The notes: generated by a model not told the origin, from the letters alone. A stretch of 64,000 bases of DNA from Escherichia coli (GCF_024502345.1 NZ_JALDNN010000001.1), one strand, 5' to 3'; counted from the stretch's first letter, positions 928 to 22,068 are shown. Program-made: numbers and translations.

Positions 928-1506
928 TCAGGGTTTCACACCAATTTGCAGCGCCAGCTCACGAATTATGCCTGCGGTCATTCCCCATACAAAATACTGT
1001 TCGTACCAGGACAGCCATACCCGATGTGAATCGCCACGGCGGTAGATATCTAAAGGGTGATAACGACCCAGATGTAATGCCTGGGCGAGCGGCATTTCAA
1101 ACACCGCCGAGACTTCATCTTCACTGGCGCGATACGGCAGATCGGGCGGGATAATGCCGACCACTGGGGTTACCTGATAGCCAGTTACGCTATCGACGGG
1201 CGGCAGCACGCCGATAACTTCAACGGCGGAAGGTGGTATAGCGACCTCTTCTTCAGCTTCGCGCAGCGCGGCGGCGATAACTGATGCGTCCGTGTCATCG
1301 ACTGCACCTCCAGGGAATGCCACTTGTCCAGCGTGTTTACGCAGATGAATTGAACGCTGAGTCAGCAACAACCCCGGTTGCGGTCGACGGACGATGGGGA
1401 TTAACACGGCAGCCTGACGATGATTTAGGGTTTCCCGGTTAATTTGCGGGCGCAAAAGTTGAAAGCGCGATAAAAAATCATCAAGCGTCAGGCTACGGTA
1501 TTCCAC
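928..1506 (-). CDS. nudL: Nudix CoA pyrophosphohydrolase
   Basis: 192-aa ORF with Nudix box ([22 protein letters not shown]); position between sdaA and pabB. Confidence 0.88.
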
Positions 1507-1509
1507 GTC

Positions 1510-2871
1510 TTACTTCTCCAGTTGGCGTAATATCTTATTAACTTTATCAAAAGTTTCCTGATATTCCGCTTCTTCCTGGCTATCGGCGACAATTCCACCG
1601 CCCGCAGAGCAGTATATTTGTCCGTTAATGGCAGTCAGCGTGCGGATAGTAATGCTGGTATCCATGTTGCCGCAAAAGCTCAAATAGCCAATGCTGCCGC
1701 ACCAGGCATTACGTCGCTGCGGTTCCAGTTCGTCGATAATTTCCATAGCCCGTACTTTCGGAGCCCCGGTTATTGAGCCACCAGGAAAAGCTGCGCGCAG
1801 CAGATCGCTGGCGTGTAACTGTTCTGGTAGTCGCGCCGTTATAGTGCTGACCAGATGATGCACGGCAGGGAAGGGTTCCACCACGAAGAGCTCTGGTACT
1901 TTTACCGAACCGGCTACGGCAACACGACCGATATCATTACGCATTAAATCGACAATCATCAGATTTTCGGCACGATCTTTCGCTGAGTTCGCCAGTTTTT
2001 CTGCTTGTTTGCTATCTTCCTGAGGATCGGGCAGGCGTGGTAGCGTGCCTTTAATCGGGCGGGTCTGGATTTCACTATTATCACAAAGAATAAACCGCTC
2101 TGGCGAAAGGCTTAAAATTGCACCCTGTTCAAGACGTAAAAAAGCGCTAAATGGCGCGCGGTTGGCCTGATTAAGCTGAAGGAATGCCTGCCATTCATCG
2201 CCAGAATAGGTCGCATGAAAACGCTGGGCGAGATTCACCTGATAGCAATCACCGCTGTGCAGATATTCCTGTACCAGGCGAAATTTTTCGCCGTACTGCT
2301 CGCGGGTCATATTGGATTGCCAGTCGGAAGTGAGCGTGAAATCTTCCTGCGGCGAGAATTGCTGGCTTTCCAGCCAGGCCCGACGGGCATTGACATCATT
2401 ATGACTCAGCAAAGAAACTGTATGACGCTGGTGGTCGACAATGAGCGCCCAATCGTAGATACCCACTGCCATATCCGGCAGAACGATATCTTGTTCCGCA
2501 ATTTCTGGCAGTGACTCAAAACGGCGGCCCAGATCGTAGCCAAACAACCCCAGTGCGCCGCCCTGAAATGGCAAATCTTCGTTATGCGTTGGGCGAATGT
2601 CTGCGCGATCCAGCACCTGCTGGAGCACCTGTAGCGGGTCATCAGTGGTCGTTGTGCGTTTTTCGCTTTCACTAACAATGGTTTCTTTACCTAAAGTGGT
2701 TAAAGTGCAAATCGGATCGGCGACCACAATATCAAAGCGGCTATACGGATGATCGGCATAGCCGGAGTGTAAAAGCATCGCCCACGGCAGGTGGCTTAAG
2801 CGGGAGAAATAAAATTCAGCGGCGTCCTGACGCCAGGGTAAAGTAATCACAGAGGGAGATAACGTCTTCAT
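1510..2871 (-). CDS. pabB: aminodeoxychorismate synthase component I
   Basis: 453-aa ORF, anthranilate/ADC synthase family (PIKGT, GGGIVADS motifs). Confidence 0.92.
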   Translation of the reverse strand: MKTLSPSVITLPWRQDAAEFYFSRLSHLPWAMLLHSGYADHPYSRFDIVVADPICTLTTLGKETIVSESEKRTTTTDDPLQVLQQVLDRADIRPTHNEDLPFQGGALGLFGYDLGRRFESLPEIAEQDIVLPDMAVGIYDWALIVDHQRHTVSLLSHNDVNARRAWLESQQFSPQEDFTLTSDWQSNMTREQYGEKFRLVQEYLHSGDCYQVNLAQRFHATYSGDEWQAFLQLNQANRAPFSAFLRLEQGAILSLSPERFILCDNSEIQTRPIKGTLPRLPDPQEDSKQAEKLANSAKDRAENLMIVDLMRNDIGRVAVAGSVKVPELFVVEPFPAVHHLVSTITARLPEQLHASDLLRAAFPGGSITGAPKVRAMEIIDELEPQRRNAWCGSIGYLSFCGNMDTSITIRTLTAINGQIYCSAGGGIVADSQEEAEYQETFDKVNKILRQLEK

Positions 2872-2944: not shown

Positions 2945-3124
2945 ATGTTTGCAGGTTTACCTTCACTCACCCATGAACAGCAGCAAAAAGCTGTCGAGCG
3001 GATCCAGGAACTGATGGCACAAGGGATGAGCAGCGGCCAGGCAATCGCGCTGGTGGCAGAAGAGCTGCGTGCCAACCACTCCGGCGAGCGAATCGTGGCG
3101 CGTTTTGAGGATGAAGACGAGTAA
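2945..3124 (+). CDS. yoaH: UPF0181 small protein, 59 aa
   Basis: ATG at 2945, translation [59 protein letters not shown]; below ORF-track length cutoff. Confidence 0.8.
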
Positions 3125-3182
3125 CACACTAATCCGTATCGATTTCGTTATAGAAGCCGATGATCATTTGATTGTGAGAAAA

Positions 3183-3215
3183 AGGACGCTTTTTATATGT
3201 GATTAAAAGCGTCCT
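3183..3215. terminator. bidirectional stem-loop between convergent yoaH and yoaC
   Basis: aggacgcttttt ... aaaagcgtcct inverted repeat flanked by A/T runs. Confidence 0.5.
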
Positions 3216-3302
3216 GACCCATTTATGCTGATATAAATTTAACTCAGACCAGTGCTTTTAGTTCTTCCTGCATATATGTTGAAAAGTATTCAGGATTTTT
3301 AA

Positions 3303-3602
3303 TCACAGAACGTTCACCTGTCTCCATTTTTTTGCCCATCCAACCATTTTTTCCGTGAACCCAGGGTTCCAGCCTTCCTGGTCAGCTCGCGCCGTAATAT
3401 CAGCGGCACTCGCGGGTACTCCCAGTTCTTTTAAATATTTAAAGATTCCCTTCGCCGTGCTTTCATTCATCGAACTTGGTGTTGGCGCTGATACATCCAT
3501 GGCACCAATGAAATCCAGGGCTTTATCTATTACAGCAGGCATATTCTTATCCTTAAAATTAACCATGTTATCGATAAGGCTATATATGACCTTAATTTGC
3601 AT
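3303..3602 (-). CDS. yoaC: DUF1889 family protein
   Basis: 99-aa ORF; conserved position. Confidence 0.78.
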   Translation of the reverse strand: MQIKVIYSLIDNMVNFKDKNMPAVIDKALDFIGAMDVSAPTPSSMNESTAKGIFKYLKELGVPASAADITARADQEGWNPGFTEKMVGWAKKWRQVNVL

Positions 3603-3963
3603 CTAATATCAAAGGGATTATAACGATATGGCACGAGTTAACCTGTTGACATTCAGGTGTTTTAAAAGTAGCAGCTCATGGTGTGTTATCCAGTAAGATG
3701 GAGAAAATTAACTGTCAGTCCGCACGCTATAACCAGATTGTTCAGCTAAGAAAGAAAACCAGAGTTGCTAATCAAAGGGCGAACACAACGGCATGTTTAT
3801 GTTTATTTATATAGTTAGTTTTATAGATAAAATTGAAATTATAAATATAAATAATGAATTAGCAGAAGCATCAACAGTAATATCTTATTCTCTGGTCGAT
3901 TTATGTAAAACCGACCAGTATTATCGATAAATTATCGTCTGACTTATTTTGCTTCGATAAAGC

Positions 3964-4308
3964 TTACACCGCAGCCACAATCTTAATTTCAACTTTATAC
4001 TTCGGGTTCATCAAACCCGCTTGTACCGTGCAGCGCACCGGCGCATGACCCGCGACAACCCAGGCATCCCACGCTTTATTCATCGCCGCGAAGTCGTTTT
4101 TATCGGCCAGGAAAATGGTGGCATCCAGAATACTCGATTTATTGCTGCCCTGTTTTTCCAGCACGGCGTCAATCTGAGCCAGCGTGTTGGCGGTTTGCTC
4201 AAAGGCATCGGCGTCGAGGTTTTCCGGTACACCAGTGTAGTAGAGCGTGTTGTTGTGGATTACTACATCAGACCAGCGGGCTTCAGCATCGATACGAACG
4301 ATAGTCAT
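3964..4308 (-). CDS. yoaB: RidA/YjgF family protein
   Basis: ORF trimmed to second ATG (MTIVRIDAEARW...), 114 aa; GAGGA 7 nt upstream. Confidence 0.85.
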   Translation of the reverse strand: MTIVRIDAEARWSDVVIHNNTLYYTGVPENLDADAFEQTANTLAQIDAVLEKQGSNKSSILDATIFLADKNDFAAMNKAWDAWVVAGHAPVRCTVQAGLMNPKYKVEIKIVAAV

Positions 4309-16672: not shown

Positions 16673-17020
16673 TCACAAGCTACGTAGCCAGTCGGCCAGC
16701 ACCAGCGCATGGTTCTGCGTGGTGTTTTTTGCTGCGTAGAGCAGGGTCAGCGGCTGTTTTTTGGCGATGTCCGCCAGCCGCTTTCCTTCTTGCTCGTGTT
16801 GCGCCAGTTCTGCAAGATATTGCTCGCGAAAGGTTGCAAAATCGACGACTTCGCCGTGAAAGGCTTTGCGCAGTTCCGTTGACGGCGTGATTTCTTTATC
16901 CCACTCATCAAGGGCTAAATCGGTTTTTTTGATACCGCGCGGCCAGAGGCGGTCGACCAGTAGGCGATAACCATCGCTCTGTTCAGCCGGATCATAAACG
17001 CGTTTGCACTGAATATTCAT
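16673..17020 (-). CDS. yeaO: DUF488 protein
   Basis: 115 aa from internal ATG (MNIQCKRVYDP...). Confidence 0.85.
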   Translation of the reverse strand: MNIQCKRVYDPAEQSDGYRLLVDRLWPRGIKKTDLALDEWDKEITPSTELRKAFHGEVVDFATFREQYLAELAQHEQEGKRLADIAKKQPLTLLYAAKNTTQNHALVLADWLRSL

Positions 17021-17074
17021 CGTGTTTGTTCTCCCTTTCACGCATGATTTGTCACGTCACTATAGCACCGGATA

Positions 17075-18256
17075 TTAGCGAATTTCTTTGTCTCTCCCGG
17101 CGCAAAGTCCGAAAATCGCCATCAGTAGTGAAAGTATTGCAACACCCATCAGTGGTACGGACCAGTCACCGTTAGCATCGTGTATTTTACCCATCAGCGG
17201 CGGCCCACAGGCTGCCAGCAAATACCCGACGGATTGTGCCATCCCCGAGAGTGCCGCCGCCTGATGCGCAGAACTTGCCCGAAGACCAATGAACGTCAAC
17301 CCCAGTATCATTGTTGCGCCGGAACCAAAACCGAAAAGCAGAGTCCAGGTGATCGCGTGCGCTGGCATAAAGCAGAGCCCAACAGCGCCCACTGCGCACA
17401 TCAAGGCAACGAACGCTGCAATACCACGCTGATCTTTCACATGATGTAAGAAAAGAGGGATCAGCAAACCGGGAGCTGCTGTGGCTAGTTGCAGCAAACC
17501 ATGCAGTGAACCCGCCTGTGCTTCGCTATAGCCGTGACTGATGAGGATCGCCGGAAGCCAGCCAATAATCACGTAATAGACCAGTGAGTTGATCCCAAGA
17601 AACAATGTGACCTGCCAGGCAAGCGGCGAACGCCAGATACCCCGAGTATGTAAGGCGCGCGAGGTACTCAAATTTGCATGTTGTTGGCTTCGCCACTGTG
17701 GCAGCCATAAAAAAAGAGACAGCAGAGGAAAACACATCAGCATGAACAACGCGCCTTGCCAGCCAAAACCGTTCAAAGCCAGCGGCACGACCATAGCCGA
17801 TCCCAGTGCCGCTGCAGCTCCCATTGTCAGGGAATATGCGCCGGTAAGTCTGGCGACGGAATGAGGGAAATCGCGTTTAATTAATCCTGGCAGTAAGACA
17901 TTGCCTAATGCAATCCCACCGCCAATGACCGCTGTACCGCCAAATAATAAGTAAGGCGAAGGGAGAGAACGAATTGCGATACCTGCACAGATCAAAAGTA
18001 ACGCGGCAAACAGGCTACGTTCCATACCAAAACGTCGCGCCACCGGGGCAGCCAAAGGTGAGATTAGCGCAAAGGCCAATAATGGCAGGGTGGTTAATAA
18101 GCCGGTTTGCGCTGTCGTCAGCGAGTAAGCGGAACGAATCGTATCCAGTAACGGCGCTGCGCCGGTAAAGGTGACGCGTAATGTTGTGGCAATCATCAGA
18201 ATGCCAGCGATAAGGACAATCCTGTTTTTGCCGCTTAATGAAGTTGAACAGGTCAT
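17075..18256 (-). CDS. yeaN: MFS transporter
   Basis: 393-aa multi-TM ORF. Confidence 0.88.
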   Translation of the reverse strand: MTCSTSLSGKNRIVLIAGILMIATTLRVTFTGAAPLLDTIRSAYSLTTAQTGLLTTLPLLAFALISPLAAPVARRFGMERSLFAALLLICAGIAIRSLPSPYLLFGGTAVIGGGIALGNVLLPGLIKRDFPHSVARLTGAYSLTMGAAAALGSAMVVPLALNGFGWQGALFMLMCFPLLSLFLWLPQWRSQQHANLSTSRALHTRGIWRSPLAWQVTLFLGINSLVYYVIIGWLPAILISHGYSEAQAGSLHGLLQLATAAPGLLIPLFLHHVKDQRGIAAFVALMCAVGAVGLCFMPAHAITWTLLFGFGSGATMILGLTFIGLRASSAHQAAALSGMAQSVGYLLAACGPPLMGKIHDANGDWSVPLMGVAILSLLMAIFGLCAGRDKEIR

Positions 18257-18352
18257 ATGCTTCTCATTGTTACAAACGAGGCTGTACCTTACCGTTTTTA
18301 TTGTTATGTTGAATCAAGCTAAAATGACAAATTATCGCTAAATTCGGACAAA

Positions 18353-19174
18353 ATGATGCACAGGTTGAATCTCAATGGCTATGAACCCGACCGACACCAT
18401 GAAGCCGCGGTCGCATTTTGTATTCACGCCGGAACGGATGAGTTAACCAGTCCTGTACATCAGCACCGCAAAGGACAGCTGATACTAGCATTACATGGTG
18501 CAATTACCTGTACGGTGGAAAATGCTTTGTGGATGGTGCCGCCGCAATATGCGGTTTGGATACCGGGCGGGGTGGAACATAGCAATCAAGTGACAGCTAA
18601 CGCTGAACTCTGTTTTCTGTTTATCGAACCCAGCGCAGTGACAATGCCGACAACCTGTTGCACATTGAAAATATCGCCCTTATGCCGGGAATTAATTTTA
18701 ACTCTGGCAAACAGGACGACGACTCAGCGTGCTGAGCCGATGACCCGCAGATTAATTCAGGTCCTGTTTGATGAACTCCCTCAGCAGCCACAACAACAGC
18801 TGCACCTACCCGTTTCTTCTCATCCTAAAATCCGCGCGATGGTGGAGATGATGGCGAAAGAGCCCGTCGAGTGGGGGTCATTGGGGCAATGGGCTGGCTT
18901 TTTTGCGATGAGTGAACGCAATCTTGCCCGACTGATAGTAAAAGAGACGGGGTTGAGTTTTCGCCAGTGGCGACAGCAGTTACAGCTGATTATGGCGCTT
19001 CAGGGATTAGTGAAAGGCGATACTGTACAGAAAGTTGCTCATACGCTGGGGTATGATTCAACAACGGCCTTTATTACTATGTTTAAGAAAGGCCTGGGGC
19101 AAACGCCAGGCCGATATATTGCGGGATTAACTACTGTTTCCCCACAATCAGCGAAACCAGACCCGCGGCAATAA
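18353..19174 (+). CDS. yeaM: AraC-family transcriptional regulator
   Basis: 273-aa ORF, C-terminal AraC HTH; divergent from yeaN. Confidence 0.85.
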
Positions 19175-19577
19175 GCGGGCCAACCGGTACGCCGCGAAAC
19201 AGCGCTACGCCTAAAACAGTGCCCACCAGCAGCCCAGCAACCAGTTGCGGCTGGCTGCCCATTAACGTCACGCCGCGCCCACCCAGCCAGGAGACAATAA
19301 CGCCTACTGCAATTGCCACCAGCGATTTCCAGTTCAGAAACGAGTGAATCAAGGTTGAGGGCGGTAGCGTCCCGCTGGCGATGGGGGCCATAACGCCAAT
19401 CGTCAGAATGATTATCCCGATACTTAGCCCCTGTTTTTCAATCCACGGGAAAAAGGTGCTTAACGGTGTGACGCGGACAATGATCAACACCAGAATTGAA
19501 ACGGCGACAGTGGTGTTATGACTGATAAAGCCCAGCGCAGCTAACCCGAGCAGGATCAGCAAAGTGACATCAAACAT
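19131..19577 (-). CDS. yeaL: DUF441 inner membrane protein
   Basis: 148-aa hydrophobic ORF. Confidence 0.85.
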
Positions 19578-19746
19578 CGTGGTTTCCTTGCCAAAAAATA
19601 ATAAGCCTGCTTACTTTACGCTTGCTGCAGGAAGGAAGTAGAAAATCTTTACGTTTTTTGCATAAAAAATCAGGCGAACTGTCATCAAACTGCCATTTGT
19701 GCACGCTAACAATAACGTGAAAACAGCTATCTCCCGGGGGCATACT

Positions 19747-19851
19747 ATGAACGATCAAATGTTCGTCGAGACACTGATTATCACGTCATCGTTTTTTGCC
19801 ATTGCGGTTGTGCTGGTTTTGTCCGTTCTGCTTATTGAACGGACAGGCTAG
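19747..19851 (+). CDS. yoaI: 34-aa small membrane protein
   Basis: Read by eye: [34 protein letters not shown]. Confidence 0.65.
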
Positions 19852-20355
19852 TTACGCTGTGCGGCGGAAATTGATCAGTTCTGGTTGCGCAATGCGCAAA
19901 TAATCCGCGGTTTTCAAAATAACGGATTTATCCAGCATCCCTGCATTGAAGGCGATTTCATCAAATCGTTCGAAGAGTAGAGGGTCGGCAACCAGTTTGA
20001 GTTTTGGATGGAAGCTGAAAGGGGGGATCGCGCCGAAGACACAGCCTGTGAGTTCATCGACTTCCGCCGGGCTGGCCAACGAAGCGCGTAATCCGCCTAT
20101 ATGGCTGGCGAGTTGGCTCAGATCGGCCTGTTGATCGGCTGCGAGGATCGCCAGAACATGTTGATTTACGCCATTGCCTTTGACTTTACATACCAGTGCC
20201 TTAGCACCCTGGCCTAGAGCGGTGCCACGAATTTCTGACACCGCTTCACATTTACCTACCGCTTCATGGGTAACGACGCGGAAATCAGCACCTTCTTGTG
20301 ATAATAAAGCGATTAACCGCTGATGCGTCACGCTTCCTTTAGCCATTTCAGTCAT
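19852..20355 (-). CDS. yeaK: YbaK/ProX-type aminoacyl-tRNA deacylase
   Basis: 167-aa ORF. Confidence 0.88.
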   Translation of the reverse strand: MTEMAKGSVTHQRLIALLSQEGADFRVVTHEAVGKCEAVSEIRGTALGQGAKALVCKVKGNGVNQHVLAILAADQQADLSQLASHIGGLRASLASPAEVDELTGCVFGAIPPFSFHPKLKLVADPLLFERFDEIAFNAGMLDKSVILKTADYLRIAQPELINFRRTA

Positions 20356-20397
20356 TTCACGCTCCTGAGATTACAAGCAAACAACCACAGAAGGTTA

Positions 20398-21888
20398 TCA
20401 TGAACGGCTGTTTTTGTTCTGCTTATTGACATATAAACGCTCATCGGAAGCTTTATACGCATCATGTAACGTATCGTTTTCTTTCATCGCGTAAATACCG
20501 GAAGAGAAGCCGATCTCTTTCTGCGGCGCGATATGTTGCAGACGTTTTTCGATACGTTCAGGCAGTTGTGCTGCAATTTGCGGCGTCGAATCGACAAGAA
20601 TGATGCAGAATTCATCGCCACCGAGTCGGATGGCATAATCACTTTTACGAATCGATTGTTTAATCGCCTGAGCTAACAACGTAATCGCTAAATCCCCTTC
20701 CTGATGACCGAGGGTGTCATTTATTAGCTTTAACTTGTCCATGTCAATTGCAATAAACATCACCGAAGAACCGGATTGCACCAGTTTCTGCAACCGCTGC
20801 TCCAGTTCAGGGGTTAAAATTTTGCGATTATACAGTCCAGTCATCGCATCACTAATATTTTCTCGCGACACATTTTGGTATAAGCGGAAGTGCATCCGCA
20901 CCATATTCAGCAAAATTAACGCCGTCAAAATCCAGAACAGAACGATTTTCCACGAAGACGTGATAAAGTAAAGAATATCAATGGATAACGAGACACGAAT
21001 GCCGCCCGGTAAGTCATGGACGTAACTGACATACTGGAACAGATTATCTTCGCTCTGGTTGATGATAATGTCGCGCCCCGAATCTGTATCGGTTAGCGTG
21101 ACATTGAGAAAACGCCAGAGGAGAGGGCGGTCATGAGTGTAAAAGATATTCCGCAGATTGTTTTTGTTAATATCCAGCAGCACAATCCCTTTTAGCTGCC
21201 CTGCAACATACACCGGCGTCAGCAAACTCATCACGTTCTGTTTAGTACGCTGATCCTGGTAAATGCTCGACAATACGGTACGCCCGGTAAATACCTTTTC
21301 AATATCTTTGCGATCGATGCCAATACTTCCTGACTGCAGGAAGGACCAGTTATTCATCGCAAAGTATTCAACATTAACCGGCTCATAAAAATAGACATAG
21401 CGGTCATTGAGATCGAGATAATAGTGAAATTTCTCTTCGGCCATCCCAAGACCTGAACCGTAATCATCCTGGTGGCGGTTGCCTTCCACTGCCTGATCAA
21501 AAGCGGGTAATAGTGCTGCAGCTTCCACAATTGTGTCGCAGTCAGTGGATGCGGTTTGTAGTGTGCCGCGTAAGCCCGGGTATTTATGGGCAGTCAGGTT
21601 TAAGCCATGGGTATTATTGGCAGACTCAAAAGCCTCGCAGATGGCGCGCCGCTGTTCTGGCGACACTTCCGACTGCTCAGCAGCGAGAGCGCGCATCACA
21701 TGCGCGGCAATACTCTGATTCTGATACTTATCATAAAGAAAGGAGGAGTCTGCTTTCTGCACGATATAGCGCAGATAGGCACTCATTGCTCTGTCGCTGG
21801 CGACAAGTTCAAAAATAAGGAAGGAAGATGTCAGCACAATGACACTTGCGGCGATAAAATGCCGGAGCATTCTATGGTGCAATTTCAT
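20398..21888 (-). CDS. dgcJ: diguanylate cyclase with periplasmic sensor domain
   Basis: 496 aa from ATG at 21888 (MKLHHRMLRHFIAAS...); GGDEF intact at 20608..20622. Confidence 0.88.
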   Translation of the reverse strand: MKLHHRMLRHFIAASVIVLTSSFLIFELVASDRAMSAYLRYIVQKADSSFLYDKYQNQSIAAHVMRALAAEQSEVSPEQRRAICEAFESANNTHGLNLTAHKYPGLRGTLQTASTDCDTIVEAAALLPAFDQAVEGNRHQDDYGSGLGMAEEKFHYYLDLNDRYVYFYEPVNVEYFAMNNWSFLQSGSIGIDRKDIEKVFTGRTVLSSIYQDQRTKQNVMSLLTPVYVAGQLKGIVLLDINKNNLRNIFYTHDRPLLWRFLNVTLTDTDSGRDIIINQSEDNLFQYVSYVHDLPGGIRVSLSIDILYFITSSWKIVLFWILTALILLNMVRMHFRLYQNVSRENISDAMTGLYNRKILTPELEQRLQKLVQSGSSVMFIAIDMDKLKLINDTLGHQEGDLAITLLAQAIKQSIRKSDYAIRLGGDEFCIILVDSTPQIAAQLPERIEKRLQHIAPQKEIGFSSGIYAMKENDTLHDAYKASDERLYVNKQNKNSRS

Positions 21889-22068
21889 GATAAATGGCAC
21901 TCCTTCGGTTAGTGAAACGAGAAAACCAGATAAAGTTCGATTGCGGCCTGGCACAGGGGCGCTAATTATACTCATCTCTGCGCCGCTGGGGAGGGGAAAT
22001 TTAGGGGTAATAGTAATAAATTGTATGCAAAAGCCACGCAAAAAGCATGGCTCTGAATATTTTTGCAC

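Follow-up and report, generated by a model that had tools for sequence, protein, structure and literature searches.

RESULTS

nimR and yeaL converge and share 44 bp of coding sequence

The window, i.e., the whole 64,000-nt stretch of DNA analyzed here (GCF_024502345.1, NZ_JALDNN010000001.1), is Escherichia coli chromosome. A 1.4-kb segment of it (18300..19700) is 100% identical to the corresponding segment of strain FDAARGOS_944 and was matched in 5411 of 5426 complete E. coli genomes. The gene order in the neighborhood is dgcP, yoaF, yeaO, nimT, nimR, yeaL, yoaI, yeaK, dgcJ, and the ORF listing places the two genes of interest as follows:

18353..19174, plus strand: coding sequence of nimR (formerly yeaM), 273 aa, from ATG to TAA
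19131..19577, minus strand: coding sequence of yeaL, 148 aa, from ATG to TAG
19131..19174, both strands: shared coding segment, 44 bp

The original prediction had described an AraC-type regulator gene, yeaM, on the plus strand and a membrane protein gene, yeaL, on the minus strand, with 44 bp in common at their 3′ ends. The ORF listing, Pfam, RefSeq, and the MG1655 annotation agree with these gene identities, strands, and coordinates, and the ORF listing, RefSeq, and MG1655 show the figure of 44 bp to be exact to the base. In both FDAARGOS_944 and K-12 MG1655, RefSeq names the genes nimR and yeaL and gives an identical 44-bp overlap; in MG1655, yeaL occupies 1874352..1874798 and nimR occupies 1874755..1875576, with 44 bases in common. 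The overlap is already known, since it is contained in the standard K-12 annotation and is catalogued as a transcriptional overlap.

The nimR product carries an AraC-type HTH_18 domain (residues 180-255) and an HTH_AraC match, with an AraC_binding/cupin domain in its N-terminal half (Pfam). A single-target repressor of the AraC type, NimR acts on nimR itself and on nimT, the gene for a 2-nitroimidazole exporter (Ogasawara et al. 2015, as cited in PMC5934670). The yeaL product is an inner-membrane protein of the DUF441 family (Pfam, residues 7-145 of 148). The yeaL mRNA is repressed by the small RNA UhpU (PMC12704781), and yeaL is weakly expressed, at 36 to 67 normalized counts (PMC10294691). 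Orthologues of both genes are spread over the Enterobacteriaceae, and nimR and yeaL are a convergent overlapping pair of two real protein-coding genes. Elsewhere in the same ORF listing, the longest ORF of dgcJ (20398..22068, minus strand) begins at an upstream GTG and gives 556 aa instead of the 496 aa of RefSeq; this longer form is a mere artefact of longest-ORF choice.

The shared segment lies past the NimR HTH_18 domain and within YeaL DUF441

The nimR stop codon TAA lies at 19172-19174, and the yeaL stop codon TAG is the complement of 19131-19133. The shared 44 bp comprise nimR codons 260-273 plus the stop codon and yeaL codons 135-148 plus the stop codon, in phase (123:132), meaning that nimR codon positions 1, 2, and 3 face yeaL positions 1, 3, and 2. 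Among convergent overlaps of 5 nt or longer, this phase is the most frequent one, at 49% (Lillo & Krakauer 2007, PMC2174442). The HTH_18 match of NimR ends at Tyr255 (window position 19117), 13 nt ahead of the yeaL stop codon, and residue 255 closes the last conserved motif, ..GQTPGRY. All the shared NimR residues (260-273) are past the end of HTH_18, and the shared YeaL residues (135-148) are within the conserved DUF441 (Pfam). The NimR domain end was taken from the Pfam match alone; a PDB sequence search with NimR for the end of the last helix gave no match at E <= 1e-5. With a permissive threshold, an Rfam scan of 17000..21000 returned only two sub-threshold chance matches and no known RNA element in the overlap.

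On the basis of the comparisons described below, the shared segment was divided into these parts:

19131..19147, both strands: 17-nt core of the overlap, yeaL codons 144-148, present in 27 loci
19148..19174, both strands: 27-nt lineage-specific extension, NimR residues 266-273 plus the stop codon, found in E. coli and many Citrobacter
19145..19147, plus strand: nimR codon 265, CAA here, whose first base complements the first base of yeaL codon 145

According to the original prediction, transcripts ending before the shared segment would speak against the overlap. An mRNA for a full-length protein carries its own stop codon, so the whole shared segment is always included in it, and this objection is inapplicable to full-length mRNAs.

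The 44-nt overlap is fixed in E. coli proper

A 101-bp query centered on the overlap was found at an identity of at least 95% in 5407 of the 5426 complete E. coli genomes, and at 99% or more in 3889. Three divergent E. coli strains that we sampled carried the same 44-bp overlap and an identical YeaL protein accession. These data bear on the idea that an error of annotation or sequencing produced the overlap, a frameshift or the loss of a stop codon having wrongly extended a 3′ end in this one assembly. Such errors have a precedent, as 124 of 178 long convergent overlaps of >60 bp were judged to be 3′-end extension artefacts (Palleja et al. 2008, PMC2478687), and NimR orthologues of 264 aa do exist. 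However, 44 nt is below the 60-nt range where artefacts dominate, stop codons are independent of gene calling, and each ORF runs only to the first stop codon in its frame. Moreover, the same sequence is present in those 5407 genomes and in K-12, a 273-aa NimR is encoded in 13 other species representatives, and the YeaL C terminus is conserved to its last residues. We therefore consider an artefact extremely improbable. A sequencing error or a strain-specific frameshift was excluded by the population data, namely, the 5407 genomes and the three divergent strains.

A 17-nt overlap allele is carried by a strain deposited as "E. coli" E69. When this allele was sought in the complete E. coli genomes, the best match had 91% identity. 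Its absence from these genomes indicates that it belongs to a diverged lineage and that the 44-nt state is fixed in E. coli proper.

Two E. coli strains had a nimR-yeaL region broken by IS1. In strain 23CRST051 (locus 1566..2319), IS1B is inserted within the nimR/yeaL overlap, and NimR is annotated at 279 aa and the DUF441 protein at 166 aa. The C termini of the two products are altered, which shows that this strain tolerates a disrupted overlap. In strain ZH142 (locus 3227..3996), an IS1-associated deletion extends from nimR codon 58 through yeaL, yoaI, and yeaK into dgcJ, a block that is dispensable in this strain.

The position of the nimR stop codon varies among Enterobacteriaceae

We scanned one genome per species and obtained 80 loci encoding YeaL at 81 to 100% identity. 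A convergent nimR orthologue was found downstream of yeaL in 58 of them, and the other 22 had no adjoining nimR. The overlap at each locus was measured by extending each ORF to its stop codon, and it ranged from -181 to +45 nt over the 58 convergent loci:

45 nt: 1 locus
44 nt: 13 loci, several of them Citrobacter (the window itself is not counted)
21 nt: 1 locus
20 nt: 3 loci
17 nt: 27 loci, from Klebsiella, Raoultella, Enterobacter, Lelliottia, Leclercia, Kluyvera, Pluralibacter, and others
6 nt: 2 loci
0 to -5 nt: 8 loci
-122 to -181 nt (spacers): 3 loci

The 17-nt class also includes the diverged "E. coli" E69 and Citrobacter youngae ATCC 29220. In most convergent loci, the yeaL and nimR starts were exactly the same number of bases apart (3001 to 4225 in locus coordinates). 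This constancy indicates that the juxtaposition is old and free of indels and that it is the nimR stop position that moves. The zero-spacer juxtaposition of nimR and yeaL, conserved across the Enterobacteriaceae, is not random. The C terminus of YeaL was nearly constant in all 80 loci; the NimR tails differed (e.g., PQSMRPGLPL), and NimR residues 266-273 varied freely among species. As the outgroup genera carry 17 nt, parsimony suggests that the 44-nt state probably arose from an ancestral 17-nt state.

Several non-coli Escherichia (five loci, from Escherichia sp., E. whittamii, E. albertii, and others; L003 and L005 to L008) keep yeaL at 97 to 100% identity and have no full-length nimR downstream of it. 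One of them, L003, keeps only a 41-residue N-terminal fragment of nimR.

YeaL residue 145 distinguishes the 17-nt from the 44-nt overlap

In phase (123:132), nimR can meet a TAA or TGA only where one yeaL codon ends in TT or TC and the next begins with A, so the position of the nimR stop codon is set by the YeaL sequence together with codon choice. All 27 loci with a 17-nt overlap encode YeaL Ile145 (ATH) after an xTT or xTC codon, and nimR codon 265 is TAA or TGA. Val145 (GTN; GTG in the window) is encoded in all 17 sequences whose overlap is 44 or 20 nt, the window included, and there nimR codon 265 is CAA or CGA. The association of Ile145 with 17 nt and of Val145 with 44 or 20 nt is thus perfect. 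With Val145, nimR reads nine codons further, to the site where yeaL L135-I136 (CTT ATT) provides the TAA at 19172-19174. In the 20-nt class, a synonymous change of yeaL L143, from CTG to CTT, creates a TAA one codon beyond codon 265.

The overlap length matches chance and the core shows reduced diversity

We set up a null model in which the YeaL protein was held fixed, its codons were resampled 5000 times according to local codon usage, and nimR was allowed to read in. The resulting overlap had a median of 68 nt and a 5th-to-95th percentile range of 20 to 221 nt, and the probability of an overlap of at least 44 nt was 0.64. The length of 44 nt is what chance predicts once the spacer is zero.

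Constraint was measured as the third-position diversity of yeaL codons, compared with that of the gene body (codons 1-125) in the same group of sequences:

yeaL codons 135-143 (27-nt extension), loci with a 44-nt overlap: 0.36; gene body, 0.37
yeaL codons 144-148 (17-nt core), loci with a 44-nt overlap: 0.16; gene body, 0.37
yeaL codons 144-148 (17-nt core), loci with a 17-nt overlap: 0.28; gene body, 0.46
yeaL codons 144-148, loci without overlap or without nimR: 0.455; gene body, 0.515

Codons 135-143 were as diverse as the gene body, which means that NimR residues 265-273 add no detectable constraint. From this pattern of variation, the nine extra NimR residues look like passengers of YeaL codons, with no function of their own. 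In the core, the Gly146 wobble site of yeaL had a diversity of 0 to 0.24 where it was overlapped versus 0.67 where it was not, and the complement of this wobble base determines which of Ser, Phe, Tyr, or Cys stands at NimR residue 263. The comparison of core diversities, which involves small numbers and sequences that are not phylogenetically independent, suggests that there may be a mild dual constraint in the 17-nt core, in which case the overlap would not be wholly neutral.

A terminator-like hairpin follows yeaL inside nimR

As there is no spacer between the two genes, the termination signal of each must sit inside its partner. A consensus scan of 18200..19900 gave a single terminator-like site:

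19112..19085, minus strand: yeaL terminator-like element, inside nimR codons 245-254, which encode the conserved end of the AraC HTH

The hairpin itself (19112..19091) starts 18 nt past the yeaL stop codon and has a folding energy of -13 to -14 kcal/mol. Its stem, GGCCUGG/CCAGGCC (19112..19106 and 19097..19091), consists of 7 bp, 6 of them GC, and encloses a loop of 8 nt; the hairpin is followed by UUUCUUAAAC, and the U-tract, UUUCUU, is at 19090..19085. A GC-rich stem and a U-rich tract located close to the 3′ side of the yeaL stop codon are the structural features that define an intrinsic terminator. The 3′ end of yeaL is accordingly predicted at ~19083-19088, i.e., at ~1874841-1874846 in K-12.

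Stability did not set the hairpin apart from chance. Among synonymous recodings of nimR, 22% folded as well, and dinucleotide shuffles gave a z of -0.83; neither result was significant. By itself, stability is no proof of selection here, since GC-rich, self-complementary codons come inherently with the peptide GLGQTPGR. A covariation count over 21 Escherichia, Citrobacter, and Salmonella sequences yielded 98% pairing and zero compensatory changes and was uninformative. We also analyzed stem wobble positions in 19 distinct Escherichia and Citrobacter sequences, with 162 nimR codons of conserved amino acid as the reference. The wobble diversities of the stem codons G247, L248, P252, and G253 were 0.105, 0, 0.105, and 0.105, respectively; the mean over the 162 codons was 0.46, and a value of 0.11 or less was seen in only 13% of them. 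For the three loop codons, the values were 0.70, 0.53, and 0.72. Of 12 Gly codons, the two in the stem showed the lowest diversity, as did the stem Pro codon (CCA) among 11 Pro codons. CCA is generally not the preferred Pro codon in enterics.

A hairpin at the same distance was present in every Escherichia locus with nimR, in every Citrobacter locus, and in Salmonella. Its U-tract is UUUCUU, a weak one, in E. coli and usually a better UUUUUU in the Citrobacter and Salmonella loci. The hairpin was degenerate or absent in Kluyvera, Raoultella, Pluralibacter, and others, and the five non-coli Escherichia loci without full-length nimR had no terminator-like hairpin within 150 nt of the yeaL stop codon. 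From its conservation at synonymous sites and its distribution, we read the hairpin as a putative intrinsic terminator of yeaL that lies within nimR and is specific to a clade, and it looks like the only selected element of the locus.

Embedded terminators of this kind are known: of the 58 convergent overlaps counted in E. coli, 19 have a rho-independent terminator of one gene within the coding sequence of its partner (PMC2174442). The yeaL hairpin and U-tract within nimR codons resemble them but differ in that the U-tract is weak in E. coli and the hairpin is largely dictated by the peptide GLGQTPGR.

nimR probably ends by Rho-dependent termination

On the plus strand, between the nimR stop codon and 19900, we found no hairpin with a T-tract, i.e., no intrinsic terminator for nimR. 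The region immediately downstream of nimR has the following composition:

19175..19332, plus strand: C-rich, G-poor untranslated stretch, antisense to yeaL, C/G ratio of 1.4 to 2.1

This composition makes the stretch a candidate Rho loading region, and nimR probably ends by Rho-dependent termination in antisense yeaL. Regarding transcripts of the locus, SMRT-Cappable-seq detected a full-length yeaK-yeaL transcript from the transcription start site (TSS) at 1873543 (PMC6131387). The Term-seq supplements of Adams et al. 2021 (PMC7815308) had no entry for yeaL, nimR, or yeaM, and no mapped 3′ end of yeaL or nimR was found in the published data searched. If yeaL ends as predicted above, the full-length mRNAs would be complementary over at least ~90 nt (19085..19174).

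The hairpin (19091..19112) could also be viewed as an overlapping bidirectional terminator of the collision type that serves both genes, an arrangement known from many convergent pairs of E. coli. The pair is convergent, and the conserved GC-rich hairpin lies where both transcripts run, as in the bidirectional terminators defined by SEnd-seq, which place a hairpin in a zone of convergent transcription; in that model, pausing at the hairpin and head-on collisions end transcription in both directions (Ju et al. 2019, as cited in bioRxiv 10.1101/2022.10.23.513370). In contrast to those terminators, the hairpin here lies 60 to 83 nt upstream of the nimR stop codon, in the essential HTH-coding region, and cannot terminate nimR productively: ending there would leave a truncated nimR mRNA without a stop codon. 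In addition, the plus strand has no T-tract after the hairpin (GATATATTG), and both genes are apparently weakly expressed (PMC10294691), whereas the collision model fits highly expressed pairs best (bioRxiv 10.1101/2022.10.23.513370). We consider a terminator shared by the two genes very improbable. The candidate was rejected, given that the only hairpin is upstream of the nimR stop codon and lacks a plus-strand T-tract.

Overlapping transcription of nimR and yeaL

The juxtaposition of the two genes raises the question of a selected regulatory device, in which the overlap would act as a functional convergent excludon, with mutual antagonism through convergent transcription and/or RNase III cutting the complementary 3′ ends, and in which this effect would be what preserves the zero-spacer layout. 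Like an excludon, nimR and yeaL are convergent neighbors with necessarily overlapping transcripts, which is the structural criterion of the class. The 165 convergent excludons that ExcludonFinder assigns to MG1655 include yeaL-nimR, together with yeaK-yoaI and yeaO-yoaF (PMC12288877); the yeaL-nimR transcript boundaries overlap in at least 50% of 58 MG1655 transcriptomes. Of the 58 convergent loci, 55, from many genera, retain the tight arrangement (-5 to +45 nt), synonymous diversity is lowered over the final five codons of yeaL where nimR overlaps them, and nimR, having no intrinsic terminator of its own, must read into yeaL. However, overlapping transcription is automatic for overlapping coding sequences, so the listing of yeaL-nimR follows by logical necessity; it is uninformative on regulation and is not evidence for it. 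The length of the overlap toggles with single bases, the tail sequence drifts, three loci have spacers of 122 to 181 nt, and 22 loci have no nimR beside yeaL. The low expression of yeaL (36 to 67 normalized counts, PMC10294691) also leaves little room for polymerase collisions. In the classical excludon, of which Listeria provides the paradigm, a long antisense untranslated region accompanies demonstrated mutually exclusive expression of functionally opposed genes. In contrast, the yeaL-nimR listing is based on coverage thresholds alone, and no functional link between NimR and YeaL is known. Our literature search found no experiment linking nimR and yeaL expression. On balance, we regard a selected regulatory device as unlikely.

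One specific form of such regulation can be spelled out. When NimR autorepression is relieved, for example by a ligand, unterminated nimR transcription would lower YeaL through collision or through RNase III acting on a duplex of at least 90 nt, and the yeaK-yeaL transcript would in turn damp nimR. We hold this scenario to be distinctly unlikely.

Other convergent pairs lie nearby. yoaI (19747..19851, plus strand) and yeaK (19852..20355, minus strand) converge with a 0-nt gap, the yoaI stop codon ending at 19851 and that of yeaK beginning at 19852. The yeaK-yeaL transcript (K-12 TSS 1873543, window position ~20386, minus strand) would run antisense over the entire yoaI. The small gene yoaI is strongly activated by PhoB, with 12,266 counts in the wild type versus 28 in a phoB deletion strain, and yeaL itself is little changed (36 versus 67 counts) (PMC10294691). 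The sequence TGTCATCAAACTGCCATT, at window position ~19680..19697 between yeaL and yoaI, is the PhoB box, located by ChIP-seq at K-12 1874218 (PMC10294691). For genuine antisense regulation, yeaK/yoaI seems a stronger candidate than yeaL/nimR. Also convergent are yoaF (plus strand) and yeaO (minus strand), ~1.4 to 2 kb upstream of nimR (1098..1352 and 1374..1721 in the coordinates of locus L001), with 21 nt between their stop codons. The same 4-kb stretch thus holds three tightly packed convergent pairs, an unusually high density.

DISCUSSION

In our interpretation, the overlap is most probably a genuine but incidental tail-to-tail coding overlap. nimR and yeaL converge without an intergenic spacer, and past the motif GQTPGRY the nimR frame runs antisense through the codons of the last transmembrane segment of YeaL until it meets a stop codon by chance. 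With Ile145 in YeaL, nimR stops at codon 265 and the overlap measures 17 nt, the widespread state; with Val145, as in E. coli, nimR reads on and the overlap measures 44 nt. Transcription of yeaL would end at the hairpin and U-tract within nimR codons 245-254, and that of nimR would end through Rho in antisense yeaL.

This picture agrees with what has been described for convergent overlapping pairs (Rogozin et al. 2002; PMC2174442; PMC2478687), in which two real genes on opposite strands have their 3′ ends in common. Loss or shift of a stop codon that extends one 3′ end is the standard route to such overlaps (PMC2478687), and nimR/yeaL arose in the same way. Nothing essential differs from the known cases, except that here the stop-shifting substitution can be named (Ile145/Val145 in YeaL, TAA/CAA in nimR) and that the 17-nt and 44-nt states coexist in close relatives.

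If nimR/yeaL were nevertheless a functional excludon, a DUF441 membrane protein would be tied to the 2-nitroimidazole efflux circuit. Under the interpretation that we prefer, an incidental coding overlap, the overlap matters little, as it belongs to a well-described class with about 58 members in E. coli. The small additions made here are the substitution that toggles between 17 and 44 nt, the apparent passenger tail of NimR, and a hairpin accompanied by synonymous-site conservation in nimR. On a practical level, edits in the last 90 nt of nimR or in the last 15 codons of yeaL hit the partner gene. Together, these additions make nimR/yeaL a teaching example of how convergent overlaps originate and where terminators are placed.
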